A stretch of 47,396 nt of DNA from positions 1 to 47,396 of the forward strand of contig JAYTRE010000305.1 of NCBI GenBank assembly GCA_043746395.1, written 5' to 3'. A program made the translations under genes and the position numbers. The notes below the pieces were generated by a model that ran no database searches, had not been told where the DNA came from, and saw only the letters and a program-made list of their open reading frames with translations. Below, piece after piece: positions 26,917-42,178 of the stretch. This DNA is from Pseudonocardiales bacterium (GTDB taxonomy: Bacteria; Actinomycetota; Actinomycetes; Mycobacteriales; Jatrophihabitantaceae). Numbering within the stretch: position 1 is the stretch's first letter; every line of letters begins with the position of its first letter.

Positions 26917-28248
26917 TTGGCGCTGTTTGGCACCGACGGCGTTCGCGGGTTGGCCAACGCCGACCTGACGCCCGAGCTGGCGCTCGCCGTGGCGAGCGCC
27001 GCCGCGCGGGTGCTCGTCGCCCACGACGCGTCGCACCGTCCATTGGCTGTGGTCGGGCACGATCCTCGGGTCAGCAGCGACATGCTGGAAGCTGCGGTGG
27101 TCGCCGGGCTGGCCGCGGCGGGTGCGGACGTGCTGCGGGTCGGGGTGTTGCCGACGCCGGCCGTCGCGTTTCTGACCGCGGCCTACGGCGCCGACCTCGG
27201 GGTAGTGCTGTCCGCGTCGCACAATCCCATGCCGGACAACGGGATCAAGCTGTTCGCCCGCGGCGGGCACAAGCTGCCCGACGAGATCGAGGCCGAGATC
27301 GAGGCCGCCGTTGCCCATGGCGCGGCCACCCGCCCGACCGGCGCCGCGGTGGGACGGGTCCGCGCGGCCGATGACGCCGCCGAGCGCTACCTCACGCACC
27401 TGCTCTCGGCCGTCCCCACCCGGCTCGACGGCCTGCACATCGTGCTCGACTGTGCCCACGGCGCTGCGGCCCTGGTGGGGCCCGAGGTGTTGCGCCGGGC
27501 CGGTGCCCGGGTCACCGCACTGGGCGTGGAACCGGATGGCGTCAACATCAACGACGGCGTCGGCTCGACCCACCTGGACGGCCTGGCCGCGGCGGTCCCC
27601 GCGGCGGGCGCCGACCTGGGGATCGCGCTCGACGGCGACGCCGACCGTTGCCTGGCCGTGGACGCCAGTGGAGTGTGCGTCGACGGTGACCAGATCCTGG
27701 CGATGTGCGCGCTGTCGCTGCGCGACGCCGGTGCCCTTTCGGCCGATACCGTCGTCGCAACCGTGATGAGCAACCTCGGCTTTCACCGGGCCATGCGGGC
27801 GGCTGACATCGATGTGATCATCACCAGTGTCGGTGACCGCTACGTGCTCGAGGCCTTGCGTGACAAGGGTTTGAGCCTCGGTGGCGAGCAAAGTGGCCAT
27901 GTGGTCTTCACTCAGGCCGCCACCACCGGCGACGGCTTGCTGACCGGCCTGCATGTCGCGGCCCGGGTCGCTAACACCGGGCAGCCGCTGGCCGAGCTCG
28001 CGGCCGTGGTGCAGCGGCTGCCGCAGGTGCTGACCAATGTCGCGGTGCGCGACAAGGGATCCGTCGCGTCCTCGGCGGCGGTCACGGCAGCCGTGGCGCA
28101 GGCCGAGCGGGAGCTCGGGGAGAACGGCCGGATCCTGCTGCGGCCGTCGGGGACCGAGGAGCTGGTCCGGGTGATGGTCGAGGCGCTGACCCAGGACCAG
28201 GCTGACGCCATCGCACAGCGGGTCGCCGCGGTGGTCGCCTCGGCGTGA
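26917..28248 (+). CDS. glmM: Phosphoglucosamine mutase
   Basis: TTG start, 443 aa, [12 protein letters not shown]. Phosphoserine loop is [13 protein letters not shown]; also DGDADRC and GGEQSGH. Confidence 0.96.
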
Positions 28249-28324
28249 GCGTCATGCCGGTGGCGCTGCCTGACAGGGCTCGCTCGCTCGCGAAGCAGCG
28301 GGTTGGCGTGGGGTCGGGCTGTCA

Positions 28325-28341
28325 GGCCGCGTTGCGCGGCC
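28325..28341 (+). terminator. Hairpin GGCCGCG-TTG-CGCGGCC downstream of glmM (terminator candidate)
   Basis: Perfect 7-bp stem with a 3-nt loop, followed by GTTGGG. A second small hairpin (GTCGC...GCGAC) follows. Confidence 0.25.
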
Positions 28342-28458
28342 GTTGGGTCGCGTCAGTCGGGTTGCGACGGGCTCTCTCGTGTCGAGTAGTCCCTTAGCAC
28401 GTGCACACCCGCGCGCTACTGCTCCCCGTTGACTCACCCGAAAATGAATGGTGACGGT

Positions 28459-28812
28459 TCACTTGCCGTCTACCGCGATCACTCGCCGACCGGGCGTCGG
28501 CCGGCCGCGCCCGGCGGGCCAGGTGCCGATCATCGCGTCCAACGCTTGCAGCACGCGACGAATCGTCGCCGCCTGGACGGGCGCGTCGGCGGCCCACTCG
28601 GCGATCGCACAGAACGATCGCGCACCGGCCACGACCGCACACACCGACACCGCGAGGACCGAGACCAGACATTGGCCTACACCGCGACGTGCCCGGGGAT
28701 CAACGACCCGACCCAGCACCGTCAACAAGTCCGCAGCCACGACACCGTCGGCGTCGACATCGGCGAGGTAGTCAACAACAACATCGATCGGCAATGATGA
28801 AGACACGAGCAC
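28459..28812 (-). mobile_element. ISAs1-family (H-repeat-associated) transposase, N-terminal fragment only
   Basis: 117 aa. VVDPRARRGVGQCLVSVLAVSVCAVVAGARSFCAIAEWAAD matches the DDE_Tnp_1-associated N-domain pattern. The ORF stops right after the conserved VIAVDGK, where the DDE catalytic domain should begin. Only about 210 nt remain before glmM. Confidence 0.75.
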
Positions 28813-29020
28813 GGCTCTTCTCGATGATCAGGTGGCGTAGACAACCGCCATGATCACCAGCAGGGCCGTGCCCAGCGCGTAGCCGGGTGTTTTCGCCAAC
28901 GGCGGCTGGCGCTGTTATCGTTTCCTGCTTACGGTCCTGATACCGTATGCGGGTCACGGCTGGCTCATCGAAAGTGCCGATGAGTGCGGGGGAGCAGTTG
29001 TCGATCGGGGGATCACAGAC

Positions 29021-30280
29021 GTGCACGTAGCATTTGGCATTTCGTTTCTGCATAATTTTGGCTTTCTACACAATCTCGGACGTTATCGGCACTTGCTGCC
29101 GATCGGGGTCGCGGGAACCATTTCGTGGTCTGTCTGGCTTTTTCGTGTCGGCCTGTCACGCCTATATCGCCCCACGCCCGTGGGCTTTCGGACGACCGTG
29201 TCGGTCGTCGTGCCTGCCTATCACGAGGATCCCGACATCCTCGACCGTTGTGTGGACTCCTTCCTCGCCGAGCCTGCGGACGAGGTGATCGTGGTGCCGG
29301 ATCTGGCCGACACCGAGGTCATCAGTCGCTTGACGTCCAGACCGGATCCGCGGCTGCGGGTGCTCCCGTTCGACCACCATGGAAAGCGCTCCGCGCTGGC
29401 GGTTGGTATCCGTGCGGCGAGGTCAGAGATCCTCGTGCTCGCCGATTCGGACACGCAGTGGTTACCCGGTTTGCTCGATGCCGTGCAGGCCCCGTTCGAG
29501 GACCCTGTAGTCGGGGGAGTTGGCACCCGCCAGAACGCGTATCTTCCCAAAACGAGCGTCTGGCGCCGCGTCGCCGATTGGATGATCGACATCCGCTACC
29601 TGGACTACGTGCCCTCGCAGAGCCGTGCTGGCGCGGTCGCGTGCCTATCCGGGCGCACCGTAGCCTACCGCCGCTCGGCAGTACTACCGGTGCTGGAGCA
29701 CCTCGAGCATGAGTTCTTCCTCGGGCGCGAGTGCATCTCTGGTGACGACGGCCGCCTGACCTGGCTGATGCTGGGTTTGGGTTACGAGACCGTCTACCAG
29801 AGCACCGCGCGGACGTTGTCGATGTTTCCGGATACCTTTCGTGCATTCCTCAAGCAGCGGGTGCGCTGGAGTCGGAACTCCTACCGGTGCTACCTGACGG
29901 CGGTGTGGAAGGGCTGGCTTTGGCGCCAACCATTCATCTGCCAGCTCAGCGTGCTGCAGATCATGATGACACCGGTGACGATGGGCATCGCCGTGTTCTA
30001 CTTGGTTCGCTGGGTGCAGCACCCGCAGGAATACCTCGCCGCGATCGCGATCGGGTGGGTCGTGCTAGCGCGCATGGTGCGCGGATCGTCGCATTTGGTA
30101 CGTAACCCTGGTGATGTCATCGTGTTGCCGCTCGTCGTGGTGATGATGGTGTTTATCGCGGTGGGCGTGAAGAGTTACGCCCTGCTCACGATGAACAGGC
30201 AGGGCTGGCTCACGCGAGGCGACTCGACGAGCGGTGGTGAAGGGCAGGACTTCGCCTCGCTGTCCATGAGGGATGTCTAG
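29021..30280 (+). CDS. Processive family-2 glycosyltransferase, HasA/NodC/chitin-synthase-like polysaccharide synthase
   Basis: 419 aa with N- and C-terminal TM helices. Motifs: VVVPAYHED, LADSDTQ (DxD, 29444-29452), SGRTVAYRR, GDDGRLT, QRVRW (29855-29869). The 5' end is AT-rich for this genome. Confidence 0.85.
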   Translation: MHVAFGISFLHNFGFLHNLGRYRHLLPIGVAGTISWSVWLFRVGLSRLYRPTPVGFRTTVSVVVPAYHEDPDILDRCVDSFLAEPADEVIVVPDLADTEVISRLTSRPDPRLRVLPFDHHGKRSALAVGIRAARSEILVLADSDTQWLPGLLDAVQAPFEDPVVGGVGTRQNAYLPKTSVWRRVADWMIDIRYLDYVPSQSRAGAVACLSGRTVAYRRSAVLPVLEHLEHEFFLGRECISGDDGRLTWLMLGLGYETVYQSTARTLSMFPDTFRAFLKQRVRWSRNSYRCYLTAVWKGWLWRQPFICQLSVLQIMMTPVTMGIAVFYLVRWVQHPQEYLAAIAIGWVVLARMVRGSSHLVRNPGDVIVLPLVVVMMVFIAVGVKSYALLTMNRQGWLTRGDSTSGGEGQDFASLSMRDV

Positions 30281-32246
30281 GCGATTGATGCGACGCGCGT
30301 CTCGTCGGCGGCGCGGCTACCTCGTCGCTGCCGGGGGGGCGTGCCTGCTGGCTGCTGTCGCGTTGATCCCGGTCCTGCGACCGGCAATAGGCAAGCCGGG
30401 ATGGGTTGCCGGCGTGCAGGTCGGGCTGCCGGTAAGGCTGCAGAGCGCAGTGAAACCATTGCCGGATGTGACGCTTCCGCTTCTCGCGCAACCGCAGGAC
30501 CCCGGTGCCGCGCCGGCTTCCGCACCAGTCTCGGCTGGCATCCACGATGCCGCTCTCGTCGTCGTCGAGGATCGCCGCCTCAGAGCTCTCCTGCATCAGT
30601 CGATCCGGCTGCCGGCGCCCGCGGTCCTCGCGGCCAGGGGCGGACTGCCCACGCTCGTACTGCCGGCCCGGCCCTACCCGTACACCGAGGGTGACCTACG
30701 CGCGGACCACGCGCTGATCTCTGTCGCGGGCCACGCGGGGACAGCCTTACTGGTGGACAACGTGCTCGTCGCTAGCGGCGCCACGCTGCAACTGGGCAGC
30801 AGTGGGAACCTCCAGACACTGCTCATGGATTCCGGGGGTGCGGGCTTCACTTCTATCGTGTCCTGGGGTGGGACGCTTCAGCTGGTGGGGACGTCTCAAG
30901 CTCCGTTCAACGTCATCGGGTGGGACGAGGAGACCCAGGCTGCGGCTCGCGATGTCGGGCATGGTCGGCCCTACATTCGGGCTGTCGGCGGCCAGTTCAC
31001 AATGTCTTATGTACATGAGTCGGCACTGGGTTTCTGGAGCGGGCGCACCGGCGGGATCGCGTGGACGGGCATCAGCCGGGCGAACGCCACCGGAGGGGCG
31101 GATCACTCGTGGTTCATCGGCAACGTCTACGGGGCCTTCGTGTCCCGCGGACAACAGATGGCGTTTCAAGATGATCTTTTTGAGGGAAACGAACTGGACG
31201 GCCTGCGGTTGCACCGTGGCACCATCAGCGTCCAGGTGTCGCACAGTGCCTCAGCCCGCAACGGGTCGAATGGCTTCGTCGTCGACCGCGGGGCGTCGCA
31301 GGACGTGCTCAGCGGCGATGTCGCGGTCAACAACGGCGGTAACGGTTTCCTGATCGACGGCCGAGCCCTGGTCCCGGGCGCGTCACCGTCGGGCGAGAGT
31401 GCCGGAGAATCCAGCGGGAACATCGTCAGCGACAGCGAGGCTACCGGTAACGCCAAGGCTGGTGTCCTGATCGAGGGTGGGCACGATCCGGTCATTGAGC
31501 GGACCATCGTCTGCGCGGCGACGTCCGCGATCGCGCTGCGCTACGCAACCGTTGGTGCCGTGATCACCGGTAATGACGTGCGTTGCGGCGGTCGCATCGC
31601 GCTATCGATCGGACCGGGCGTGACCGGGACAACCGTGGCAGACAACCTGCTTACCAGTGCGCGGATCGGCCTGCTCGTACACAACGCGGCAGGGCTGCGA
31701 CTGCTCGGAAACACCCTGAACCTGATGAGCGTGTTCGGGGTCTCCATCCGGGGCGCGTCACCCGGCATCGTCGGAGACAACAACATCATCTCCGGCCGGG
31801 GCTTCCGGCCGGTCGACCTGCGGGCCGGTGCCAGCGCGCCGGCGTTTACCAACACCGACGTCTCGGGCTGGAAGCACCTGACCCACCTCAACGTGTGGGA
31901 CTACCTCCGGTACCACCCGATCATGCTGCTGTGGGCGTGCATCATCGGCTTTGTGATCCTGGCATCGGTCCTGTCCAAGTTGCGCAGGAGGCGGCGGCGC
32001 GCCCAGCTCTATGCCCATGCGTTCGGACATCAGGCGGCCCTGGCGCACCTGTCCCTGCACCCACTGACGCTGACCACCGCGACGATCGGCGCCGCCCCGA
32101 ACGGGCACGGTTTCGCTCCCGAGCGCGCCGCGACGAGCAGCGTCGGCGTGAACGGTGGCGCCGGCACCGTCCTCGATGGCGGCGGCTCTGAGCCGGGACC
32201 GGCAGATGAGGCACCGCGGTGGCACCGCGCAGACGCGCGCCGGTAG
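30273..32246 (+). CDS. Right-handed parallel beta-helix (PbH1/NosD-like) protein bracketed by N- and C-terminal TM anchors
   Basis: ATG at 30273 overlaps the GT2 stop (ATGTCTAG). 657 aa. The N-terminus is RRRRGYLVAAGGACLLAAVALIPVL. It has serial beta-helix coils (GNELDGLRLHRG, NGSNGFVVDRG, NNGGNGFLIDG, GNAKAGVLIEGG, ...). The C-terminal TM is IMLLWACIIGFVILASVLSKLRRRRRR, followed by a tail of about 85 aa. Confidence 0.8.
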   Translation: MSRRLMRRASRRRRGYLVAAGGACLLAAVALIPVLRPAIGKPGWVAGVQVGLPVRLQSAVKPLPDVTLPLLAQPQDPGAAPASAPVSAGIHDAALVVVEDRRLRALLHQSIRLPAPAVLAARGGLPTLVLPARPYPYTEGDLRADHALISVAGHAGTALLVDNVLVASGATLQLGSSGNLQTLLMDSGGAGFTSIVSWGGTLQLVGTSQAPFNVIGWDEETQAAARDVGHGRPYIRAVGGQFTMSYVHESALGFWSGRTGGIAWTGISRANATGGADHSWFIGNVYGAFVSRGQQMAFQDDLFEGNELDGLRLHRGTISVQVSHSASARNGSNGFVVDRGASQDVLSGDVAVNNGGNGFLIDGRALVPGASPSGESAGESSGNIVSDSEATGNAKAGVLIEGGHDPVIERTIVCAATSAIALRYATVGAVITGNDVRCGGRIALSIGPGVTGTTVADNLLTSARIGLLVHNAAGLRLLGNTLNLMSVFGVSIRGASPGIVGDNNIISGRGFRPVDLRAGASAPAFTNTDVSGWKHLTHLNVWDYLRYHPIMLLWACIIGFVILASVLSKLRRRRRRAQLYAHAFGHQAALAHLSLHPLTLTTATIGAAPNGHGFAPERAATSSVGVNGGAGTVLDGGGSEPGPADEAPRWHRADARR

Positions 32247-33304
32247 CGCTGGTGACAATCGCGTTCGCGCTTGTCACCAGCGGGTGCACGGCGGTCACCG
32301 CACCGCCATCACCGTCTGTGCCCCGTAGCCAGACCGCGTCGGAAGCGCTCCCGAGTTCCACTGTGAGCGCCACGCAGGCCACGCAGGCCACGCCTGGCCA
32401 GGGGTGTCCCTCCGGTGCTGGCACGACGGTGCGGTCCGCCGCGCAGCTGCAGCATGCGCTGGCGGACGCGACTGCCGGGTCACTGATCGAACTCGCACCC
32501 GCAACATATGTCGGGCACTTCGTCGCGCATGGTGCGGGCACGCAAGCGAACCCAATAACGCTATGCGGCCCGCGCTCGGCAATTCTTGACGGAGGGAGCA
32601 TCGTGAGCGGATATGTGCTGCACCTCGATCACGCGCAGTGGTGGCACGTTGTCGGATTCACCGTCCAGGACGGCCAGAAGGGCGTGGTCTTGGACAAATC
32701 CGATCACAACCAGGTCAGCGATCTTCGCGTCACGCATATCGGGGACGAGGGTATTCATCTGCGTGACTTCAGCGATGACAACGTCGTCGACGGCAACGTG
32801 GTCTCCGGTACGGGCAACCTGCGGACAAAGTTCGGCGAAGGCATCTACGTCGGCACTGCGCACAAGAACTGGTGCAGCATCACCGCCTGCCAGGTGGATG
32901 CCAGCGATCGGAACGTGATCCGCAACAACATCATCTCCATGACGACGGCAGAGAATATCGACATCAAGGAGGGCACCTCATCGGGAGTTATCGAGGGTAA
33001 CCAACTTTCTGGGGTGGGCATGGTTTCCAGCGCGGCGAAGGCCTGGGTCAACGTCAAGGGCAACCATTGGACTATCAGCCATAACCACGGCGTCGACAGC
33101 ATCAAGGACGGGTTCCAGGTCCACCAAGTTTATCCAGGGTGGGGCCTGGACAACGTGTTCACCGACAACACCGCGGACGTCGGCGCGGCGGGCTGGGGGT
33201 ACTACGTCCAGCGCAAGTCTCTCGACGCGGTTATCGGATGTTCCAACACCGCAACGGGAGCCGGGGCGGGCGTAGCGAACGTGTCGTGCGCAACCGGGTT
33301 CTGA
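32219..33304 (+). CDS. Beta-helix lipoprotein (pectate-lyase-fold; candidate polysaccharide lyase/hydrolase/epimerase)
   Basis: GTG start overlaps the preceding gene by 28 nt. The signal and lipobox are RRRAPVALVTIAFALVTSGC. Beta-helix coils include GDEGIHLRDFSDDNVVDGNVVSG, GEGIYVGT and ENIDIKEGTSSGVIEGNQLSG. Confidence 0.75.
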   Translation: MAPRRRAPVALVTIAFALVTSGCTAVTAPPSPSVPRSQTASEALPSSTVSATQATQATPGQGCPSGAGTTVRSAAQLQHALADATAGSLIELAPATYVGHFVAHGAGTQANPITLCGPRSAILDGGSIVSGYVLHLDHAQWWHVVGFTVQDGQKGVVLDKSDHNQVSDLRVTHIGDEGIHLRDFSDDNVVDGNVVSGTGNLRTKFGEGIYVGTAHKNWCSITACQVDASDRNVIRNNIISMTTAENIDIKEGTSSGVIEGNQLSGVGMVSSAAKAWVNVKGNHWTISHNHGVDSIKDGFQVHQVYPGWGLDNVFTDNTADVGAAGWGYYVQRKSLDAVIGCSNTATGAGAGVANVSCATGF

Positions 33305-33412
33305 GCCTCTGCGGGTTCTGCGCCTGGTTGACGCGGCGAGCAGCTCACATGCCGCGGAGCAGGTAGCCAGCCAACGGGTCGCCTGCCCGCAATCATCACA
33401 TCGGGGGAAACC

Positions 33413-34762
33413 ATGAACAGCATCACGCATCACGCACCACGTATCACCGTCATCGGTACCGGCTACCTTGGCGCGACCCACGCCGTTTGTATGGCCGACC
33501 TGGGCTACCACGTGCTCGCGGTGGACACCGACGCGAACAAGATCCGCCGGCTCGGCGAAGGTGACACGCCGTTCTTCGAACCGGGCCTGCAGCCGCTGCT
33601 GCGCAAGCAGCTCGAATCCGGCCGGCTCCGGTTCACAACCGACTACGCCGAGGTCGCCGAGTTCGGCGACGTCCACTTCCTGTGCGTCGGCACACCGCAA
33701 GTCTCGGGCGGCACCGCCGCGGACCTTCGCTACGTCCACGAGGCGACCGCCACGCTGTTCCCGCTCCTGGACCGCAGCTGCCTGGTGGTCGGCAAGTCCA
33801 CCGTGCCGACAGGAACCGCGCGCCAACTCGCCGACAAGCTTGTCGAGCTTGCCCCGGCAGGTCGCGATCGCACGGCGCCGCCGCGGCTGGCGTGGAACCC
33901 GGAGTTCCTGCGGGAGGGCTACGCGGTAGCCGACAGTCTGCACCCAGACCGGATCGTCATCGGCGTCGAGCACGAATGGTCCGGCGTGCAGCTCCGGGCG
34001 CTCTACCGGCCCATCATCTCCGAGAGCACCCCGGTTCTGGTGACCGACCTCGCCACGGCCGAACTCGTCAAGGTAGCGGCGAACGCCTTCCTCGCGACAA
34101 AGATCTCCTTCATCAACGCCATGGCCGAGATTTGCGAGGCCGTGGGGGCGGATGTAAACACGCTCAGCGATGCCCTCGGCCACGACGAACGCATCGGGCG
34201 GCGCTTCCTGTCCGCCGGCCTCGGCTTCGGCGGCGGTTGCCTGCCCAAGGATATCCGGGCGTTCCGGGCCCGCGCCGAAGAGCTCGGCATTGGGGAGTCT
34301 CTCAAGCTCCTCGAGCAGGTCGACGCGATCAATTTGCGGTGCCGGGACCGCACTGTCGAGGCGGCGCGCCAGGCCTGCGGCGGGGAATTCACCGGGCGCC
34401 GCGTCGCCGTGCTCGGCTGCGCGTTCAAACCGGACAGTGACGATGTCCGGGATTCCCCGGCGCTGGATGTCGCCCGGCGGATCGAGGCCGCAGGAGCCGA
34501 GCTTCGGGTGCACGACCCGGTGGCCACCGAAAGCGCTGCACGGGCGCACCCGGAACTGACGTACTCGACGAGCATCGTCGACGCGCTGAGAGGCGCTGAT
34601 GTGGTGCTGCACCTCACCGAGTGGGCGGAGTACCGCACACTCGACCCTGTTCAGCTGGCCGGCGTGGTTAACCAGCCGCAACTCGTGGACGCCCGTAACG
34701 CACTCGACGCGGTAGCCTGGCGGTCTGCGGGCTGGCACGTGCGGCAGCTGGGACGGCCGTGA
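33413..34762 (+). CDS. ugd: UDP-glucose 6-dehydrogenase
   Basis: 449 aa. Rossmann motif ITVIGTGYLGATHAVCMADLG and catalytic-Cys motif GLGFGGGCLPKDIRAF. C-terminal UDP-binding domain contains AFKPDSDDVRDSPA. Confidence 0.92.
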   Translation: MNSITHHAPRITVIGTGYLGATHAVCMADLGYHVLAVDTDANKIRRLGEGDTPFFEPGLQPLLRKQLESGRLRFTTDYAEVAEFGDVHFLCVGTPQVSGGTAADLRYVHEATATLFPLLDRSCLVVGKSTVPTGTARQLADKLVELAPAGRDRTAPPRLAWNPEFLREGYAVADSLHPDRIVIGVEHEWSGVQLRALYRPIISESTPVLVTDLATAELVKVAANAFLATKISFINAMAEICEAVGADVNTLSDALGHDERIGRRFLSAGLGFGGGCLPKDIRAFRARAEELGIGESLKLLEQVDAINLRCRDRTVEAARQACGGEFTGRRVAVLGCAFKPDSDDVRDSPALDVARRIEAAGAELRVHDPVATESAARAHPELTYSTSIVDALRGADVVLHLTEWAEYRTLDPVQLAGVVNQPQLVDARNALDAVAWRSAGWHVRQLGRP

Positions 34763-35364
34763 GCTGGGGCCGGCCGCGCCCGCAGGAGCGACCGCAGCGG
34801 ATCGCGATCGCCGCATCGCTGGGCCTGATCGCCTTTCTGAGCGCTGGATGCGGCACGCGGCCCGCAGATCCCTCCGCCCCTTACTTCCCGACGAGTTCCG
34901 CGGCAGGTGCGACCGTCTTGAGCAAGGGGTTGTCCGCGACGGATCCGTTGTCGGGTGCCGGGATCCAGGTGGCCAAGGGCGCCATCTCGCGACCCAACCC
35001 CAAGCTGACACCAGGGCAGATCAGCCAGACCGACACGCACGCGGTCTGCTCCTCACCGTTACGCACCAAGATGAACATCCCGTACCCGGAGCAACAGGCG
35101 GTCTTCGCCCGCTACAGCATCCCCGTGAGCCAGCAACGGCATTATTCGATGGACTACCTGGTGCCGATCGATATCGGAGGCGGAACATCGCTGAGCAACC
35201 TCTGGCCAGCGGCCGTTAAGGGCAACGGCTTCCATGAGAAGGAGCAGATCAATCACCAGCTGCGGGTCCTGGTCTGCCGTGGGACGCTCACCCTCGCCGC
35301 GGCACAGCAGGGCATTATCAGAGATTGGTTCGCAATGTGGACCTCGTACTCGACCGCACGGTGA
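34759..35364 (+). CDS. HNH-nuclease-like lipoprotein with Tyr in place of the DH histidine
   Basis: GTGA overlap with the ugd stop. Lipobox is LIAFLSAGC. The architecture is TPG...VC...(MDYLVPIDIGGGTSLSNLWP)...EKEQINHQLRVLVCRG...AQQGIIRDW. This matches the secreted actinobacterial HNH family, which normally reads DH-L-LGG...NLWP. Confidence 0.6.
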   Translation: MSWGRPRPQERPQRIAIAASLGLIAFLSAGCGTRPADPSAPYFPTSSAAGATVLSKGLSATDPLSGAGIQVAKGAISRPNPKLTPGQISQTDTHAVCSSPLRTKMNIPYPEQQAVFARYSIPVSQQRHYSMDYLVPIDIGGGTSLSNLWPAAVKGNGFHEKEQINHQLRVLVCRGTLTLAAAQQGIIRDWFAMWTSYSTAR

Positions 35365-35365
35365 T

Positions 35366-35683
35366 TCAGAACCGCTGATTCGCACGGCGGCGGCCGTCAA
35401 GGTCGGCTCGCCGGTTGCAGCGCAGGGCGTACGCCGCGAGCCGTTCCAGCTCATGCGCAAAGGTCAGGGCGAGTTCCGGTGTCAGGTACACGTCCTCAGA
35501 GTCGCCGCGTGCCTCGATGTGAATGAACTGCCGACCCAGGTCGGACAGGTCCGCGACGAGTCGGGCGGAGGCGGTGTAGGGGGAGTCGAGTTGGCGACCA
35601 CCCGACTGGGTCAGCCCAGCGGGCCTGACCCAGCTCGTCACCGCGGACACCGAGTCGCCGCTGATATCCGCGCCGCCGCCCAT
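35366..35683 (-). CDS. Hypothetical 105-aa protein, tightly coupled downstream of the lyase gene
   Basis: Its ATG lies 3 nt after the lyase stop on the same strand. I recognised no family. It is acidic and helical-looking (DVYLTPELALTFAHELERLAAYA). Confidence 0.4.
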   Translation of the reverse strand: MGGGADISGDSVSAVTSWVRPAGLTQSGGRQLDSPYTASARLVADLSDLGRQFIHIEARGDSEDVYLTPELALTFAHELERLAAYALRCNRRADLDGRRRANQRF

Positions 35684-35686
35684 CGC

Positions 35687-36850
35687 TCAGCTGACCCGGA
35701 AGCCGGTGAAGTCCATATGCTGGTCGACCGGCGACGCCCACGAGGGGCCGTGACCGCCGAAAAACGTCGAGAAGAACAGCCCGTTGATCGGGACGCCGGC
35801 AGTCGTGATGGCCAGACCCGTCTGGTCAATCACGGTGGAACCGTCATAGGCGAGGCTGATCCATCCATCGCTGTGGCCCGGGCTATTCAGGTGCACGTGC
35901 TCGGTCACGGTGTGCCACCGCCCATCGGCTTTCCACACGAAGTTGCCACGCCCCCACGAGTCTCCGTAGCCAGACGAGGTAGAGATGTAACCATAAATTT
36001 CACCACGGCCACCGCTTCGCCACATGAGGCGCGCCGACCATCCTGCCGAATTGTGCCGGCCGCCCGAGAAGGGCTCAGTCCCACCGTAAAGACCGGGCAT
36101 CTTGCCGCCCCGCACGAACTGGAAGCCGACGGGAATCCGGACCTCGTAGGTCAGGGTGGCATCAGTCCTCGGCCCGGACGCGAAGGGAGCGCACACTTGG
36201 GCGCCGCCGTATGGCGCGCCCGCAGACGGCGCTGAGGAGCCGCGCGGGTAGCTCACCGACACGAAGCCAGCGTTTACCGAGACGTTCTGGTTCTTGAAGG
36301 TACAGAAGGTGTGCGCGGAGAACGACGTCCCGAGCAACGTCCGGATCCATGCGGAGTTCATCGTCGCAGTGTTTCCGCCGGGTGGCGTCGGCGATCTCGG
36401 TGACTTCCGTGGCGGCGGGCTGGAAGTGTGCCTTTTCGCGCGCCGTTCGAGCAGATCCTTCCGCCGTTCGAGCAGATCCTTCCGCCGTTCGAGCAGATCC
36501 TTCCGCCGTTCCAGCAGGTCGCGCTGCTGGTCTTGCACAGCGCGCTGCCGATCGCGCAGGGAGCGCAACTGGTTGCGCAGGGCGCGCCGCTGCTGGTCGC
36601 GCAGGACACGCTGCAGATCGCGAGCGCGCCGGTCAGAGTGGGCAAACTTGTGCGAAGCAACCGCCGCGGAAGCCGGCGGCGTGGCACCGCTGAAGGTTGT
36701 GACCAGCACCGCCAGCACAATCGCGAAGCGCACCGCGGGTCGCTTCGGGGCCCTAGGGTCGCACAGTCGCGAATCCCCCATGGTTCGGCGAGAATGTAGC
36801 CACTTCTGACAGCGCATGGCGATCGATCTCCGGCTCGTGGTCGCATCCAC
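35687..36850 (-). CDS. Secreted PL14-like polysaccharide lyase with N-terminal Arg/Gln/Leu-rich coiled-coil repeat region
   Basis: The signal peptide is KRPAVRFAIVLAVLVTTFSGATPPASAAVAS; the start may be Met24 at 36781. A coiled-coil segment follows (RDLQRVLRDQQRRALRNQLRSLRDRQRAVQDQQRDLLERRKDLLERRKDLLERRKDLLERR). The C-terminal jelly-roll domain carries GGKMPGLYGG...SARLMWRSGGRGEIYGYI. Confidence 0.7.
   Translation of the reverse strand: MDATTSRRSIAMRCQKWLHSRRTMGDSRLCDPRAPKRPAVRFAIVLAVLVTTFSGATPPASAAVASHKFAHSDRRARDLQRVLRDQQRRALRNQLRSLRDRQRAVQDQQRDLLERRKDLLERRKDLLERRKDLLERRAKRHTSSPPPRKSPRSPTPPGGNTATMNSAWIRTLLGTSFSAHTFCTFKNQNVSVNAGFVSVSYPRGSSAPSAGAPYGGAQVCAPFASGPRTDATLTYEVRIPVGFQFVRGGKMPGLYGGTEPFSGGRHNSAGWSARLMWRSGGRGEIYGYISTSSGYGDSWGRGNFVWKADGRWHTVTEHVHLNSPGHSDGWISLAYDGSTVIDQTGLAITTAGVPINGLFFSTFFGGHGPSWASPVDQHMDFTGFRVS
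36442..36504. repeat. Perfect 21-nt tandem repeat x3 (GCCGTTCGAGCAGATCCTTCC) plus a degenerate 4th copy, in-frame in the lyase gene
   Basis: Counted base by base: copies at 36442-36462, 36463-36483 and 36484-36504. They encode the heptad (RRKDLLE)n on the minus strand. Confidence 0.95.
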
Positions 36851-36980
36851 TCTGCGACTTCACCACCCTTCATCGGCCCTGGATCTGGAAAGCTGAGGAA
36901 TTTCGTGCGCGCAGTTCGCCAGCCCCCGTCTCCCTGGTCTGCTTGCCACGATGCAGGCGCGGGTGGGTGCCCGACGGCAT

Positions 36981-37014
36981 ACGTGCTGCGACTGGCTACG
37001 TGCTGCGACTGGCT
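36981..37014. repeat. 17-nt tandem duplication ACGTGCTGCGACTGGCT x2 (plus partial third ACGTGTTGCC)
   Basis: Copies at 36981-36997 and 36998-37014, read directly. The length is not a multiple of 3. Its reverse complement contains TAG, and two minus-strand ORFs terminate inside it. Confidence 0.9.
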
Positions 37015-37708
37015 ACGTGTTGCCAGCCCACCGAGTTCCGCCGCCGCAGGTAGCAGCCGCGCACCGGCCACGGTCGCGAAGACGGTCGTTGCGGAACGTC
37101 AGGCCATCGACTTGCCACGCGTAGCAGCCTGGGGACTGACCCAGGTCCCTCCAGTGGGCTCCCCACAGCCGTCGACGCCGTTCTGCGGCCCGGCTGCCAC
37201 CATGAGCGGGCCGGTCGTGGGACCTCACCCAGCCCGACCGGGCCTGCGCCGTCCAGACGCTGGATGCGGATGACAAACGGACCCTGATAGGCGGGAACAC
37301 TGAACCAGAGGGTCTTGAACCCGAGGCATGGAGGCGCGGAGGAGTGGGTGAGGAGATCGGCGATTCGGTGCATCAGATCGCCTGGCGCCGCGATGCTTGA
37401 TCGTACCGGTCCCTGTCCCAGTGCGACGCGCTGAATGCACTGGTCCGTATCGGCTGACCGGACGAAGTGGGACACGCCTCACCCGGCCGCAGCACCGGAA
37501 GGTGAAGCGGGCGCTCGAGACCGGCGGGCAGCGATCCGCCCGTCGTCGCGCCGGTCGAGGTTGCTGACGTTGATGCTGCGGAGCTACCTGGTGTCCTCGT
37601 CGCGGGTGCGGACGCCCGCTGCTTCGGTGATCCGGCGGTGCAGCCCGCCCCCACAAGCCGGGTGAGGACCGTGATCAGGCCGAGAGGTACAGCATGACCT
37701 CGGACCAT
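36996..37708 (-). pseudogene. Frameshifted lipoprotein gene (at least two frame changes)
   Basis: A GGAGG lies 7 nt before the ATG at 37708. The lipobox is LTRLVGAGC. Protein-like sequence moves from frame A (...PGEACPTSSGQPIRTSAF) to frame B (VALGQGPVR...GFKTLWFSVPAYQGPFVIRIQRLDGAGPVGLGE). It then moves to frame C (HWRDLGQSPGCYAWQVDGLTF), and the ORFs end in the 17-nt duplication. Confidence 0.45.
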
Positions 37709-37769
37709 TGGTGCACCTCCCTTCGGCCGAGGGGGCGCAAAGTTTCGATAGCGGCGTGAAACTAGAGCG

Positions 37770-39335
37770 TCAGCGACGCAGCAGATCCGAAGCCTTCTCG
37801 GCGATCATCACCGTGGGTGCGTGGGTGTGGCCACGGATGATCTGCGGCATCACCGAGGCATCGACGACGCGCAGGCCGGCAACGCCACGCACCCGCAGCT
37901 GCTCGTCCACCACCGATGCCTCGTCGGTGCCCATCCGGCAGGTGCCGGTGGGGTGGTAGAGCGTCTCGGCGTTGGCCCGGATGTATTCGGCCAGGTCGGC
38001 TTCGCCCGTCGCCGGCATCATTTGCTCCGTCACCAGGCCACGCAGCGCGCTCGTCGCGAACATCCGCTGGGCCTGCTCGACCCCGGCGACCAGCCGCCGT
38101 AGGTCTGCGGGCTCGTGCAGGTAGCCGGCGTCGATCACCGGCGCCACCGACGCATCCGGCGAACGGGCGGTGATCGTGCCCGTGCTGTCCGGCTGCAGCA
38201 GCACCACTCCGATCGTGATCCCGTGCCCGGGCGGCTCGACCTCGCCGTGCTTGATGAACGGCCCCGGGGCGAAGATGTACTCGAGATCCGGGTGCTCCAG
38301 GCCCGGGTCGGAGCGCCCGAAAGCGACCCCCTCCCCAACGTTGGACGTGAGCATGCCGCGCCGCCGGGTGAGGAACTTCAGCAGCTGCACCGGCTTGTCG
38401 GCGTCCACGAGGGTGACTGCATCCCGGGTAAACATGATCACAGGAACGGAGAGGTGATCCTGCAGCCGCTTGCCAACCCCGGTGTTGGCGACCTGGGTCT
38501 GAATCCCGGCACTGCGCAACATCTCGGGATCGCCGATCCCGGAGAGCTGCAGCAGGTGCGGTGAGTGCACAGCACCCGCGCTGAGGATCACCTCGCGCCG
38601 GGCGGCCAGGGTGAGCCGACTGCCGTTGGCCAGCCGCACGTCAACTCCCGTCGCTCGCCCGTCGTCGAGCACGATCCGGTGAGTCATCGCGTTCACGTGC
38701 AGCGTCAGGTTCGCGCGCTTGAGTGCCGGGCGCAGGTAGCCGTCGGCGGCACTCCAGCGCCGGCCCCTGCGCTGGGTCACCGGCGTGGGAGCGTATCCGT
38801 CGATGTCGGGATCGTTGAGCTCCCCAAGCCGGGTCAGACCCTCCTGCCCGCAGGCCTCGAAGAAGGCCGCCCGCAGCGGGTTCGGGTCGCGCAACTCCTC
38901 GATGTATAGCGGGCCGCCAACGCCATAGACGTTCCCGGCATTGCTGCCGATCCGGTTTTCGGAACGCCGGAAGTAGGGCAGCACGTCGGCGAACGACCAA
39001 CCGGGAACCGCCTCGCCCCAGCCGTCGTAGTCCGCCCGGGCCCCGCGCACCCACATCTGCGCGTTGAGTGAGGAAGACCCGCCCAGCGTCTTGCCGCGCG
39101 GCCAGAACAGTTCGCGCGCCTTCAGCTCGGGCTGCGCGGTCGTCGACAGATCCCAGTCGTACTTGGTGTGGAACAGCTTCGGGAACGCCGCCGGGAGCTT
39201 GATCTCCAACTTGCGATCGCGCGGTCCCGCCTCGACAAGCGCGACCGTGACTCCCGGATCGGAACTGAGCCGATTGGCCAGCACGCAGCCGGCCGAGCCG
39301 GCCCCGACGATCACATAGTCGAATACATCCGTCAT
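37770..39335 (-). CDS. GMC-family FAD oxidoreductase (choline/alcohol/sugar dehydrogenase-like)
   Basis: 521 aa, FDYVIVGAGSAGCVLANRLS, GKTLGGSSSLNAQMW, C-terminal YHPTGTCRMG and active-site His region. Confidence 0.9.
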   Translation of the reverse strand: MTDVFDYVIVGAGSAGCVLANRLSSDPGVTVALVEAGPRDRKLEIKLPAAFPKLFHTKYDWDLSTTAQPELKARELFWPRGKTLGGSSSLNAQMWVRGARADYDGWGEAVPGWSFADVLPYFRRSENRIGSNAGNVYGVGGPLYIEELRDPNPLRAAFFEACGQEGLTRLGELNDPDIDGYAPTPVTQRRGRRWSAADGYLRPALKRANLTLHVNAMTHRIVLDDGRATGVDVRLANGSRLTLAARREVILSAGAVHSPHLLQLSGIGDPEMLRSAGIQTQVANTGVGKRLQDHLSVPVIMFTRDAVTLVDADKPVQLLKFLTRRRGMLTSNVGEGVAFGRSDPGLEHPDLEYIFAPGPFIKHGEVEPPGHGITIGVVLLQPDSTGTITARSPDASVAPVIDAGYLHEPADLRRLVAGVEQAQRMFATSALRGLVTEQMMPATGEADLAEYIRANAETLYHPTGTCRMGTDEASVVDEQLRVRGVAGLRVVDASVMPQIIRGHTHAPTVMIAEKASDLLRR

Positions 39336-39538
39336 GGTGACCTCCGGTACCGCGCAGAGCCGGACCGTACCCCGCGCGAGCGCACCGCCGGTAGCTCAGG
39401 CGGGCGATCGTCTCGCGGACGTCCGTCGTCTGGATGTCGAGCCCGCCGAGACGGGTGTCACGCTCGGCACGTGGGCCTGTGAGAGGTGTTAGCCGAGCTG
39501 GGTTCGCCCAGCCGGCACCGCGACAATGGTCGGTAGTC

Positions 39539-40288
39539 ATGACATCGTCTCGCAGCCCGAAACCCCGTCCTGAGCACGACCCTGCCCACCGGGTGCGCCT
39601 GCAACTGTCGGCCACCCAACTGATCGCCAGCGCACTGGCCGCCGTGACCGCCACGATCGCGGCGTCCTACCTCGGCGTCAGCGGCACCGTGATTGGCGCA
39701 GCCATCGCCAGTGTCGTGACCGTGACCGGCAACGCCGTGTACAGCCACTCCATCCACCGCACCGGCCAACGAGTGCGCACCGCCGTGCCGATCGGCGCCC
39801 GGCGGGCCGCAGCCGCCGGCCCGCGACCCGGCAGCCCGGGCCCCGCTGCGGGCCCCGCCAGCCCGCCGGGAGTTCAGTCGCCCGCCCCCCGACGGCCCGG
39901 GCCACCCGGCTGGTACCGCCTCGCCCTGGCCACCGCAGCGGTCTTCGTGGCGCTGCTCGCCCTGGTCACCACTGTCGAACTCGCCGCCGGACGGCCGTTG
40001 AGCGATGTCCTGCGAGGACGTCAGGCCCAGGGCACCACCCTGCTCGGGAACCCGGGCCCGCACCCGGTGATCCCAGTGCCGACGGTGACCCGGACGGTCG
40101 TGCCGAAGGTCGTGGTCACCACGCCCACGGTCATCGAGACCGCCCCGGCCGTCACCGCCACGGCCACGCCCACCGCTACGGCCACGCCGACGGTCGGCCC
40201 GTCCGTGTCGCCGACCAGCTCGGCGTCGCCGTCAGCGGCGCCCACCGGATCCGCCTCACCCACTCCGTCGGCAACGCCGACGCCCTGA
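39539..40288 (+). CDS. Hypothetical membrane protein with Pro/Thr/Ala/Ser-rich C-terminal region
   Basis: ATG at 39539, 249 aa. Two hydrophobic helices (LIASALAAVTATIAASYLGVSG..., LALATAAVFVALLALVTTV) are followed by ATATPTATATPTVGPSVSPTSSASPSAAPTGSASPTPSATPTP. Confidence 0.55.
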   Translation: MTSSRSPKPRPEHDPAHRVRLQLSATQLIASALAAVTATIAASYLGVSGTVIGAAIASVVTVTGNAVYSHSIHRTGQRVRTAVPIGARRAAAAGPRPGSPGPAAGPASPPGVQSPAPRRPGPPGWYRLALATAAVFVALLALVTTVELAAGRPLSDVLRGRQAQGTTLLGNPGPHPVIPVPTVTRTVVPKVVVTTPTVIETAPAVTATATPTATATPTVGPSVSPTSSASPSAAPTGSASPTPSATPTP

Positions 40289-40333
40289 CGTAACCCCCAG
40301 GGCGCGGCGGCCCGTCCCGGTACCCTGATCGCC

Positions 40334-42178
40334 ATGTGCGGAATCGTCGGATACGTCGGAGGCCGCGATGCCCTCGACGTGGTGGTCGAGGGTTTGCGCC
40401 GGCTCGAATACCGCGGCTACGACTCGGCCGGCGTCGCGATCCTCGACGGCGGCGAGCTGCAGATCGCCAAGCGAGCCGGCCGGATCGAGAACCTGGACAA
40501 GGAACTGGCCACCCGCACCATCACCGGCACCGCCGGCATGGGGCACACCCGCTGGGCCACCCACGGGGCGCCGACCGACCGCAATGCGCACCCGCACGCC
40601 AGCGCCTCCGGCCGGGTCGCCGTCGTGCACAACGGGATCATCGAGAACTTTGCGGCGCTGCGCGCCGAGCTCGAAGGCGCGGGCGTGGAGTTCGTCAGCG
40701 AGACCGACACCGAGACGGTGGCGCACCTGGTCGCCGCCGAGCTGGCGGCTGATGGCACTTCGCTGGCCGATGCGGTGCGCGCCGTGTGCCGCCGCCTGCA
40801 GGGCGCGTTCACGCTGGTCCTGCTCGACGCCGACCAGCCTGACGTCCTGGTCGCCGCGCGGCGCAGCTCACCACTAGTCGTCGGCGTGGGCGACGGGGAG
40901 ATGTTCGTGGGCAGCGACGTAGCCGCGTTCATCGAGTTCACCCGGGACGCGATCGAGCTGGGCCAGGACCAGGTCGTCGAGATCCGGCGGGACAGCTACA
41001 CGATCACCGGTTTCGACGGCTCGCCCGTCGCCGGCCGGCCGTTCCGCATCGACTGGGACCTCGCTGCCGCCGAGAAGGGCGGCTACGAGTACTTCATGCT
41101 AAAGGAGATCGAGGAACAGCCCGCCGCGGTTGCAGACACGCTGCTCGGGCACTTCGTCGACGGCGAGGTGCGCCTGGACGAAGAGCGCCTGGACCGCCAG
41201 GAACTGCGCGATGTCGACAAGGTCTTCGTCGTGGCCTGCGGTTCGGCCTACCACGCCGGCCTCATCGCCAAGCAGGCCATCGAACACTGGACCCGGATCC
41301 CGGTAGAGGTGGAGATTGCCTCGGAGTTCCGCTATCGCGATCCGGTGCTCGACCGGCAGACGCTCGTCGTCGCGATCAGCCAATCCGGGGAGACTGCCGA
41401 CACGCTGGAGGCCGTGCGCCACGCGCGCCAGCAGCAGGCCCGAGTACTGGCGATCTGCAACACGAACGGCGCGCAGATCCCGCGCGAATCCGACGCCGTG
41501 CTCTACACGCACGCCGGCCCGGAGATCGGCGTGGCTGCCACCAAGACCTTCCTGGCCCAGGTGGCGGCCGCGGAGCTGGTCGGGCTCGCGCTCGCCCAGG
41601 CCCGCGGCACCAAGTACCGCGACGAGATCGTGCGCGAGTACGAGGCCATGGTGGCGATGCCCTCGCAGATCGAGGCAGCGCTGCTCGTCGCGGACCAGGT
41701 AGGCGCGCTGGCTCGCGAGATCGCGTCCGCCAGAGCAGTGCTGTTCGTGGGGCGGCACGTCGGATACCCCGTCGCGCTGGAGGGCGCGCTCAAGCTCAAG
41801 GAGCTGGCCTACATGCACGCCGAGGGCTTTCCTGCCGGCGAGCTGAAGCACGGGCCAATCGCGCTCATCGAGGAGGGCATGCCGGTCGTCGTTGTGATGC
41901 CGTCGCCGACAGGGCGCCCCGTCCTGCACCAGAAAATGCTCAGCAACATCGCCGAGGTCAGGGCCCGCGGTGCGCGCACGATTGTCGTCGCCGAGGTGGG
42001 CGATGCGGCGGCGCGCGAACACGCCACCGACCTCATCGAAGTGCCCGCCGTGCCTACCCTGCTGGCCCCGTTCGTCACCACGGTGCCGCTGCAGATCCTC
42101 GCCGCGGAGATCGCTCGCGCCCGCGGCTTCGACATCGACAAACCCCGCAACCTCGCGAAGTCCGTCACCGTCGAGTAG
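40334..42178 (+). CDS. glmS: Glutamine--fructose-6-phosphate aminotransferase
   Basis: 614 aa, MCGIVGYVG (Cys2 nucleophile), two SIS domains, C-terminal KPRNLAKSVTVE. Confidence 0.98.
   Translation: MCGIVGYVGGRDALDVVVEGLRRLEYRGYDSAGVAILDGGELQIAKRAGRIENLDKELATRTITGTAGMGHTRWATHGAPTDRNAHPHASASGRVAVVHNGIIENFAALRAELEGAGVEFVSETDTETVAHLVAAELAADGTSLADAVRAVCRRLQGAFTLVLLDADQPDVLVAARRSSPLVVGVGDGEMFVGSDVAAFIEFTRDAIELGQDQVVEIRRDSYTITGFDGSPVAGRPFRIDWDLAAAEKGGYEYFMLKEIEEQPAAVADTLLGHFVDGEVRLDEERLDRQELRDVDKVFVVACGSAYHAGLIAKQAIEHWTRIPVEVEIASEFRYRDPVLDRQTLVVAISQSGETADTLEAVRHARQQQARVLAICNTNGAQIPRESDAVLYTHAGPEIGVAATKTFLAQVAAAELVGLALAQARGTKYRDEIVREYEAMVAMPSQIEAALLVADQVGALAREIASARAVLFVGRHVGYPVALEGALKLKELAYMHAEGFPAGELKHGPIALIEEGMPVVVVMPSPTGRPVLHQKMLSNIAEVRARGARTIVVAEVGDAAAREHATDLIEVPAVPTLLAPFVTTVPLQILAAEIARARGFDIDKPRNLAKSVTVE

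Follow-up and report, generated by a model that had tools for sequence, protein, structure and literature searches.

A modular gene cassette of soil bacteria predicted to make and cut a glucuronic acid-based extracellular polyuronate

Background

What polymer, if any, is made by the genes that lie between glmM and glmS in an uncultured actinomycete, and does that polymer owe anything to its two neighbours? The window that we analysed is a complete contig of 47,396 bp (JAYTRE010000305.1, assembly GCA_043746395.1, Pseudonocardiales bacterium), and the interval in question holds a family 2 glycosyltransferase (GT2), a beta-helix protein bracketed by transmembrane (TM) helices (BH1), a second beta-helix protein that is a lipoprotein (BH2), a UDP-glucose 6-dehydrogenase (UGDH), a small lipoprotein (lipo201) and, on the opposite strand, a lyase of polysaccharide lyase family PL14. 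An earlier note, made from the sequence alone, had read the whole 12 kb as a candidate for an undescribed system for the synthesis, modification and turnover of an exopolysaccharide built from uronic acid and hexosamine. By examining each protein and the distribution of the gene set among other bacteria, we arrive at a narrower answer: a cassette at about 28.3–37.7 kb of the window was probably acquired horizontally and probably directs the synthase-dependent production of an extracellular polyuronate based on glucuronic acid (GlcA), by a logic resembling that of alginate. That its backbone is a homopolymeric glucuronan is, in our judgement, a serious possibility just short of an even call.

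Results and discussion

Distribution and modularity of the cassette

Gene identities in the window were obtained from Pfam, NCBIfam and Protein Data Bank (PDB) searches of its open reading frames (ORFs). Related loci came from a genome scan seeded with GT2 (21 loci, in Dormibacterota, Geodermatophilus, Modestobacter, Kineosporiaceae and Streptosporangiaceae), from two look-ups of GT2 homologues (3 further loci) and from a metagenome scan seeded with BH1 (80 loci, mostly on soil or peat contigs). Modestobacter marinus and Geodermatophilus sp. CPCC 205761 are cultured carriers (L013–L015). These 104 related loci reduce to 79 non-redundant ones when near-identical copies are collapsed, and among the 79, GT2 stands directly upstream of BH1 in every locus that could be tested (65 of 65). 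A lyase, either PL31-like or PL14, accompanies the pair in all 26 loci that are fully covered on both sides. Where 5 kb of downstream sequence is available (35 loci), BH2 occurs in 30 and PL14 in 5, with at least one lyase in 33; UGDH occurs in 22, and lipo201, always at the end of the operon, in 17. Loci lacking BH2 have two PL14 genes beside a UGDH-GT2-BH1 group, so that PL31 and PL14 lyases appear to substitute for each other. The functional unit is GT2, BH1 and at least one polyuronate lyase, to which UGDH and the lipoprotein are frequent additions, and the cassette is widespread, modular and mobile, being present at about 80 distinct sites in soil bacteria.

The hexosamine part of the earlier reading, a glycosaminoglycan-like product suggested by the flanking UDP-N-acetylglucosamine precursor genes, is not supported by this comparison. 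Neither glmM nor glmS adjoins the cassette in any of the 104 related loci: the only matches to glmM are at paralogue level (25% identity), about 2.5 kb off and on the opposite strand (L076 and L078), while glmS and the insertion sequence (IS) stub found in the window never occur with the cassette. No N-acetylglucosamine (GlcNAc) pathway gene recurs in these loci. In the window, glmM and glmS belong to a housekeeping synteny beside ribosomal-protein and rplM-rpsI genes. A functional link of glmM and glmS to the cassette is rejected by synteny, and the setting is an accident of island insertion.

A distinct clade of synthases

The only significant PDB matches of GT2 are class I hyaluronan synthases (HAS), namely 8SMM (5e-18) and the Chlorella-virus enzyme 7SP7 (5e-13), and in the alignments to both the DSD, GDD, QxxRW (QRVRW) and W-x-T-R (WLTR) motifs are all matched. 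Hydrophobic segments lie at residues 309–329 and 359–391. Homologues number more than 2,600, and those at about 70% identity carry the source labels Dormibacterota, Chloroflexi, Acidimicrobiales and other Actinomycetota.

These structural relatives raise the possibility that GT2 is a true synthase of hyaluronan, or of another glycosaminoglycan-like polymer of GlcA and GlcNAc, and that the product is a hyaluronan-like capsule; the Joint Genome Institute (JGI) names many of the homologues 'hyaluronan synthase', the pairing with UGDH recalls hasA-hasB, and in the window the cassette does sit between glmM and glmS. The resemblance is nevertheless a distant one. GT2 is about 28% identical to Bacillus HasA and equally so to rhizobial NodC, its score against the NodC equivalog TIGR04242 (131.9 bits) is far under the cut-off of 550, and its family keeps invariant motifs of its own (SGR, GDDGRLTW, KQRxRWSRNSYR and WLTR), of which the first two differ from the HAS-specific versions (SGP and GDDRxLTN). 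Because of the missed NodC cut-off, the equal distance to both relatives and these motifs, sequence comparison assigns GT2 to a clade of its own, under strong constraint, within the HAS/NodC/chitin-synthase group, and makes it an orthologue of neither HasA nor NodC; the HasA/NodC-like label of the earlier note holds at the level of the group. The activities of PL31 and PL14 reported in the literature that we searched are on glucuronan and alginate, not on hyaluronan, and the missing GlcNAc-pathway neighbours argue in the same direction. We consider a hyaluronan-like capsule improbable, and GT2 is instead predicted to be a processive polymerase and translocase that uses UDP-GlcA.

A more remote relative of GT2 (32% identity) was seen on plasmid pTCL of Curtobacterium sp. 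TC1 (L105, 6938–11509), where it is followed by a GH26-like glycosyl hydrolase and then by a UGDH. This module looks like a separate actinobacterial HAS-like/UGDH system with a hydrolase in place of the lyases.

Precursor supply

The UGDH of the window scores 419 bits against TIGR03026 (cut-off 190), 372 bits against TuaD (short of the equivalog cut-off of 700) and 169 bits against UDP-N-acetylmannosamine dehydrogenase; in the PDB, the UDP-glucose dehydrogenase 4A7P (7.5e-100) is matched much more strongly than AlgD (1.4e-55). Homology identifies the enzyme as a supplier of UDP-GlcA. A GDP-mannose dehydrogenase, which would have implied true alginate, was considered and rejected, since UDP-glucose dehydrogenases score far higher. 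Among related loci there are two UGDH lineages, both TuaD-like and about 38% identical to each other: one is encoded upstream of GT2 (about 38% identity to the window enzyme; L002, L003, L022–L024, L026, L028, L030 and L051) and the other after BH2 (about 60% identity; L008, L009, L011, L031 and others). The occurrence of two lineages at two operon positions suggests that UDP-GlcA supply was recruited independently, more than once.

Two families of polyuronate lyase

The match of BH2 to the PL31 lyase PsAly (PDB 6KFN; phmmer E=5e-41, 144 bits) runs over residues 72–325 and covers the whole catalytic beta-helix. BH2 keeps the equivalents of Tyr184 and Lys221 (PsAly numbering): its Tyr in GEGIYVGT and its Lys in NIDIKEG align with chain positions Y150 and K187, an offset of 34 residues, and the two residues are reported to be catalytic in PsAly (PMC11890756). 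The founding enzymes of PL31, from Saccharophagus degradans and Streptomyces hygroscopicus, are endo-beta-1,4-glucuronan lyases (PMC6442616). BH2 is a candidate endo-glucuronan lyase.

The second lyase consists of a signal or anchor segment, a heptad-repeat coiled coil, a proline-rich linker and a PL14 beta-jelly-roll domain, the last of which scores 175.7 bits against PF21294 (cut-off 27) and matches AkAly30 (5GMT, 5e-25) and vAL-1 (3A0N, 4e-7), in agreement with the PL14-like lyase of the earlier note. The Lys, Ser, Arg, Tyr and Tyr of AkAly30 that we take to be its active site are all kept, at one consistent numbering offset, and the domain is 56–59% identical to the PL14 domains encoded beside GT2-BH1 in Dormibacterota loci. 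Endo-glucuronan lyase activity is on record for PL14 subfamilies 1 and 5 (PMC11890756).

Given the known specificities of both lyase families, together with the UGDH, beta-1,4-glucuronan would be the likeliest backbone. A rival product is a mixed neutral and acidic heteropolymer from a dual-specificity synthase, for example one of glucose (Glc) and GlcA like the pneumococcal type 3 cellubiuronic acid made with Cps3S and Cps3D. Single GT2 synthases paired with a UGDH do make alternating Glc-GlcA polymers, and as the cassette encodes no precursor enzyme other than UGDH, abundant UDP-Glc could provide the second sugar. Beta-elimination, however, needs a 4-linked uronate, and the GlcA of cellubiuronic acid is 3-linked, which would leave the obligatory lyases unexplained; the known activities of both lyase families are on homopolyuronates, and the AlgG-like groove of BH1 (see below) suits a continuous polyuronate. 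A heteropolymer of this kind has, in our view, little chance of being the product.

The lyases also invite a quite different explanation, that the locus serves the breakdown of glucuronan or alginate from other organisms, fungi or algae: both carry export signals, and characterised glucuronan lyases are encoded by soil actinobacteria. Yet a membrane GT2 synthase, accompanied by UGDH, forms the invariant core; the lyases vary from locus to locus and the synthase does not, and no transporter, oligo-uronate lyase or catabolic gene of the KdgF, KduI or KdgK type is found in the cassette. We regard a catabolic locus as very improbable.

Several smaller features of the lyase genes were recorded. Tandem PL14 genes occur in Dormibacterota-type loci (L022, 5387–7797; L023, 5809–8073), the long PL14 of L022 being extended at its N-terminus by a further domain of about 250 aa, and a metagenome-assembled genome (MAG) of Kineosporiaceae has two tandem BH2 (PL31-like) genes (L021, 2987–5061). 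In the window, the PL14 gene contains a 21-nt tandem repeat (36441–36517; 3.7 copies, 98% identical) with a degenerate continuation to 36629; it encodes (ERRKDLL)n heptads, the predicted coiled coil between anchor and lyase domain, which may form a stalk of variable length. A near-perfect 17-nt inverted repeat with a 2-nt loop (32247–32282) begins one base past the BH1 stop, in the first codons of BH2, and may form an RNA hairpin at the junction of the two genes.

BH1, a membrane-anchored AlgG-like protein

From its N-terminus, BH1 comprises a TM helix, a right-handed beta-helix, a second TM helix and a disordered Arg-rich tail. In an AlphaFold2 model based on 43 members of the family (predicted local distance difference test, pLDDT, 83), the two helices span residues 4–35 and 549–579 and the beta-helix residues 117–535 approximately; conservation extends to a juxtamembrane motif and to the two TM helices. 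At E<=1e-30 the family comprises 316 representatives, counted as clusters at 50% identity.

A PDB search with the single sequence gave no useful match. When the model was compared with the PDB by Foldseek, AlgG took the top four places (1e-12 to 4e-11) and modules of AlgE4 and AlgE6 ranks 6 to 8, and the family profile likewise placed AlgG first in the PDB (E=0.005), so that in both the fold and the profile searches the AlgG and AlgE epimerases stand above all lyases. The profile alignment sets NELDGLRLHR of BH1 against NIVYGIDPHD of AlgG, and FVVSRG against IIISRE. With AlgG numbering checked against the D317A mutant entry 4NK8, His319 corresponds to H314 of BH1 and Arg345 to R339, each at least 90% conserved among the 43 family members; we take these to be, in AlgG, the catalytic histidine and the carboxylate-neutralising arginine (Wolfram et al. 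2014). Judged by model and alignment, BH1 is AlgG-like in fold and, in part, in its active site, and we infer that it is a subunit that binds or modifies the polyuronate and invariably partners the synthase.

Whether that partner is an epimerase is another matter. The epimerase motif DPHD, or YG(F/I)DPH(D/E), reads RLHR in BH1, both Asp having become Arg and the AlgE4-type Tyr having become Asp (D309), and because the acids and the Tyr are replaced, epimerase activity is far from assured: we hold it to be possible but unlikely. It is rather more conceivable, and quite possible, that BH1 is no epimerase but a third depolymerase or a non-catalytic anchored guide for the chain, comparable to BcsB of cellulose synthase, which would leave the glucuronan unmodified. 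The altered site fits such a role, as does the fact that lyases, hydrolases and epimerases have the beta-helix fold in common, and the conserved juxtamembrane motif and TM helices suggest a structural partnership with the synthase. The rank of AlgG and AlgE above every lyase and the conservation of the His and Arg equivalents speak against this. As for a depolymerase, a non-lyase role is favoured because a dedicated lyase, distinct from BH1, is already present in each of the fully covered loci. The earlier suggestion that the beta-helix proteins are epimerases, lyases or hydrolases can thus be divided between a PL31-type lyase (BH2) and an AlgG-like protein without DPHD (BH1). The idea that BH1 and BH2 are paralogues was rejected (BLASTP, 22% identity over 167 aa, E=0.006).

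The lipoprotein lipo201

Searches of Pfam, NCBIfam and PDB profiles with lipo201 were empty. Its AlphaFold2 model (pLDDT 68) matched only HNH domains by Foldseek, at a sub-threshold E of about 0.3, and a Tyr stands in place of the canonical His. Of the HNH-like lipoprotein of the earlier note, the lipobox stands and the HNH part weakly so; a degenerate HNH-like fold is possible from the model. The family is very small; its homologues fall in 10 clusters found (including P0307–P0315), the nearest relative coming from a Pseudonocardiaceae MAG, and they share the lipobox Cys31 and the strictly conserved motifs DPSAPYFP and DYLVP..GG..NLWP. To judge from lipoprotein and TM signals, BH1, BH2, lipo201 and PL14 would all lie outside the membrane.

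Proposed mechanism and points against it

We propose the following sequence of events. UGDH, by homology, would convert UDP-glucose to UDP-GlcA; GT2 would polymerise the chain and thread it through its own membrane channel, as the structures of class I HAS suggest; and the emerging polyanion would enter the AlgG-like groove of BH1, held beside the synthase by a TM helix at each end, to be modified or guided there. The likeliest activity of BH1 would be C5-epimerisation at the polymer level, from GlcA to L-iduronic acid (L-IdoA), with cleavage or a scaffold function as alternatives. BH2 and PL14, assigned to their families by homology, may then cut the chain by beta-elimination for release, sizing or recycling, a role that AlgL plays for alginate. 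The host bacteria are predicted to lack an outer membrane. In its boldest form the proposal makes GT2-BH1 a bacterial beta-1,4-glucuronan synthase with a new, membrane-tethered glucuronan C5-epimerase acting on the polymer (AlgG fold, RLHR site) and the product a copolymer of GlcA and L-IdoA; this we consider a long shot, and the same holds for its corollary, a UDP-sugar analogue of alginate widespread in soil Actinomycetota, Dormibacterota and Chloroflexota (as named by source labels).

Several points weigh against a glucuronan-type system, besides the changed active site of BH1. The nearest solved relatives of GT2 make hyaluronan, and a one-sugar synthase is indistinguishable from a two-sugar synthase by sequence. 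Alginate lyases are included in both PL31 and PL14, and the substrate is not fixed by the lyase family. No UGDH lies within 10 kb in 11 of the 26 fully covered loci, although those genomes may encode one at another place. The function assigned to every family member rests on prediction from sequence or structure. Lastly, the plasmids of PLSDB, Sinorhizobium meliloti replicons included, gave no match to BH1 and only NodC- or HasA-level matches to GT2; because BH1 is without a counterpart there, the cassette is probably not the rhizobial glucuronan pathway.

Comparison with known systems

The cassette belongs to the synthase-dependent exopolysaccharide machinery. With the alginate system of Pseudomonas and Azotobacter it shares a nucleotide-sugar 6-dehydrogenase, a GT2 membrane synthase, an AlgG-like beta-helix that retains the catalytic His and Arg, and a polyuronate lyase encoded in the operon. 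It differs in its precursor (UDP-GlcA rather than GDP-mannuronic acid), in the clade of its synthase (HAS/NodC rather than Alg8), in its AlgG-like protein, which has a TM anchor at either end and no DPHD motif, and in its lyases (PL31 and PL14 rather than PL5). Domains of Alg44/PilZ, of AlgK/AlgE export and of AlgI/J/F/X acetylation were found neither among the island ORFs nor among the neighbours in related loci. The hasA-hasB-hasC operons of Streptococcus and Bacillus pXO1 likewise combine a single HAS-like GT2, having DxD, GDD, QxxRW and W-x-T-R, with a UGDH; unlike them, the cassette has no hasC or glmU-type gene and a synthase of low identity with other family motifs, and they have no counterpart of its obligatory beta-helix partner and lyases.

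The known PL31 lyases (PsAly and those of S. degradans and S. hygroscopicus) were studied as free degradative enzymes, whereas BH2 is a lipoprotein of a biosynthetic operon. Chlorella-virus vAL-1 and Aplysia AkAly30 resemble the window PL14 in their full-length PF21294 domain and aligned active-site residues, but the window enzyme is bacterial, has an N-terminal anchor and heptad coiled coil, and is encoded beside a synthase operon. CslA/GlxA and MatAB (poly-N-acetylglucosamine) are also synthase-dependent GT2 systems of Actinomycetota; they belong to other GT2 clades, make neutral or amino-sugar polymers and have no UGDH, lyases or AlgG-like protein. What is new in the part list of the cassette is that a GT2 of the HAS clade occurs together with lyases of family PL31 or PL14 and with an AlgG-like protein that has TM helices at both ends and reads RLHR in its active site. 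As the earlier note had supposed, the combination appears undescribed: a full-text literature search, which did not cover many subscription journals and so leaves room for an earlier description, turned up neither this gene set nor a named glucuronan synthase.

As of 2023, the genes and loci of glucuronan biosynthesis were stated to be unknown (PMC10180729), and the cassette is a concrete, testable candidate for them. If the proposal is true, it would provide a biosynthetic route of five genes for a polymer that interests industry, could explain the abundance of glucuronan lyases in soil bacteria and fungi, and would endow soil phyla that are abundant yet little known, Dormibacterota among them, with a polyuronate matrix system. 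According to a 2015 review, the polymer-level uronate epimerases of bacteria are only the AlgG/AlgE and heparosan types (PMC4432689). BH1, if an epimerase, would bring the known bacterial kinds to just three and be a possible enzymatic source of iduronate-containing polymers.

Layout of the locus and borders of the island

Ribosomal-protein, rpoA and rplM-rpsI genes lie in the left 26 kb of the window and are followed by glmM (Table 1). The tight coupling of the plus-strand operon, noticed earlier, follows from overlaps of 8 nt between GT2 and BH1, 28 nt between BH1 and BH2 and 4 nt between UGDH and the lipoprotein, computed from the coordinates; the PL14 gene is convergent with it. The other gene assignments of the earlier note, a TM-bracketed beta-helix protein, a beta-helix lipoprotein and a UGDH, were upheld by the database searches and the AlphaFold2 models, as was the uronic-acid half of its reading, with synthesis by a HAS/NodC-like GT2 and UGDH, extracytoplasmic beta-helix proteins, and turnover by lyases.

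Table 1. Genes and other features at and around the cassette (positions in the window)
Feature	Position	Strand	Basis or remark
glmM	26917-28248	+	Pfam/NCBIfam/PDB
Truncated ISAs1-type transposase stub, 117 aa	28459-28812	-	PF13808 DDE_Tnp_1_assoc
GT2 synthase (predicted), 419 aa	29021-30280	+	Pfam Glyco_tranf_2_3 5.7e-31
BH1, 657 aa	30273-32246	+	Pfam Beta_helix/NosD
BH2, putative PL31-family beta-helix lyase, lipoprotein, 361 aa, lipobox TSGC	32219-33304	+	phmmer to 6KFN
UGDH	33413-34762	+	All three UDPG_MGDP_dh domains
lipo201, lipoprotein, 201 aa, lipobox SAGC	34759-35364	+	Translationally coupled to UGDH
105-aa ORF	35366-35683	-	Directly downstream of PL14 gene; status uncertain
PL14 lyase (putative), secreted or anchored	35687-36850	-	PF21294 1.4e-51
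Spacer without recognisable gene	36851-37769	.	No coding signal
GMC oxidoreductase, cytoplasmic, choline-dehydrogenase-like	37770-39335	-	GMC_oxred_N + GMC_oxred_C
orf284, membrane protein, 284 aa, Pro/Thr-rich tail	39434-40288	+	No family match
glmS	40334-42178	+	Pfam/NCBIfam/PDB

On the left, the ISAs1-type stub has the N-terminal domain only (PF13808, E=1.2e-10, 41.7 bits, cut-off 32.3), with no DDE catalytic domain in the roughly 210 nt between it and the glmM stop at 28248; going by its domain content, it is a remnant and no functional IS, and it marks the left junction of the island. GC content falls to 0.61–0.65 at 28400–29400, compared with 0.70–0.73 in the flanks, so that both the dead transposase and the AT-richer junction described before were found again. 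Third-position GC content (GC3) ranges over 0.77–0.84 in the island genes and 0.82–0.93 in the flanking genes.

The right border lies short of the full 12 kb. The cytoplasmic GMC oxidoreductase scores 510 bits against NF002550 (cut-off 605), has a GC3 of 0.87, like the core and flanking genes, and occurs in none of the 104 related loci; it is probably a resident gene outside the system. Nor does orf284 occur in any of the 104; it too looks resident and is not part of the system. Since these two genes look resident, the acquired island would end at about 37.7 kb and extend over about 28.3–37.7 kb. The spacer, where the earlier note had placed a decayed lipoprotein, shows codon periodicity in no frame, and its ORFs have no Pfam match and no homologues in related loci by tblastx or tblastn; it is probably the right-hand junction of the island. 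Of the small ORF said to be coupled to PL14, the coding-like GC3 (0.81) speaks for a gene, whereas Pfam gave no match, and tblastx and tblastn searches of the related loci yielded low-complexity noise and no credible homologue. Searches for island-flanking repeats and att sites found short chance repeats only, and counts from promoter and terminator scans were not above those of shuffled controls.

Two minor observations concern genes outside the island. Just upstream of glmS, the Pro/Thr/Ala-rich C-terminal tail of orf284 derives in part from an 18-nt repeat (40153–40188). The longest ORF for ribosomal protein L13 (25770–26519) encodes 249 aa, of which the L13 domain occupies only residues 116–233; its true start is probably internal, or else the protein has an unusual N-terminal extension.

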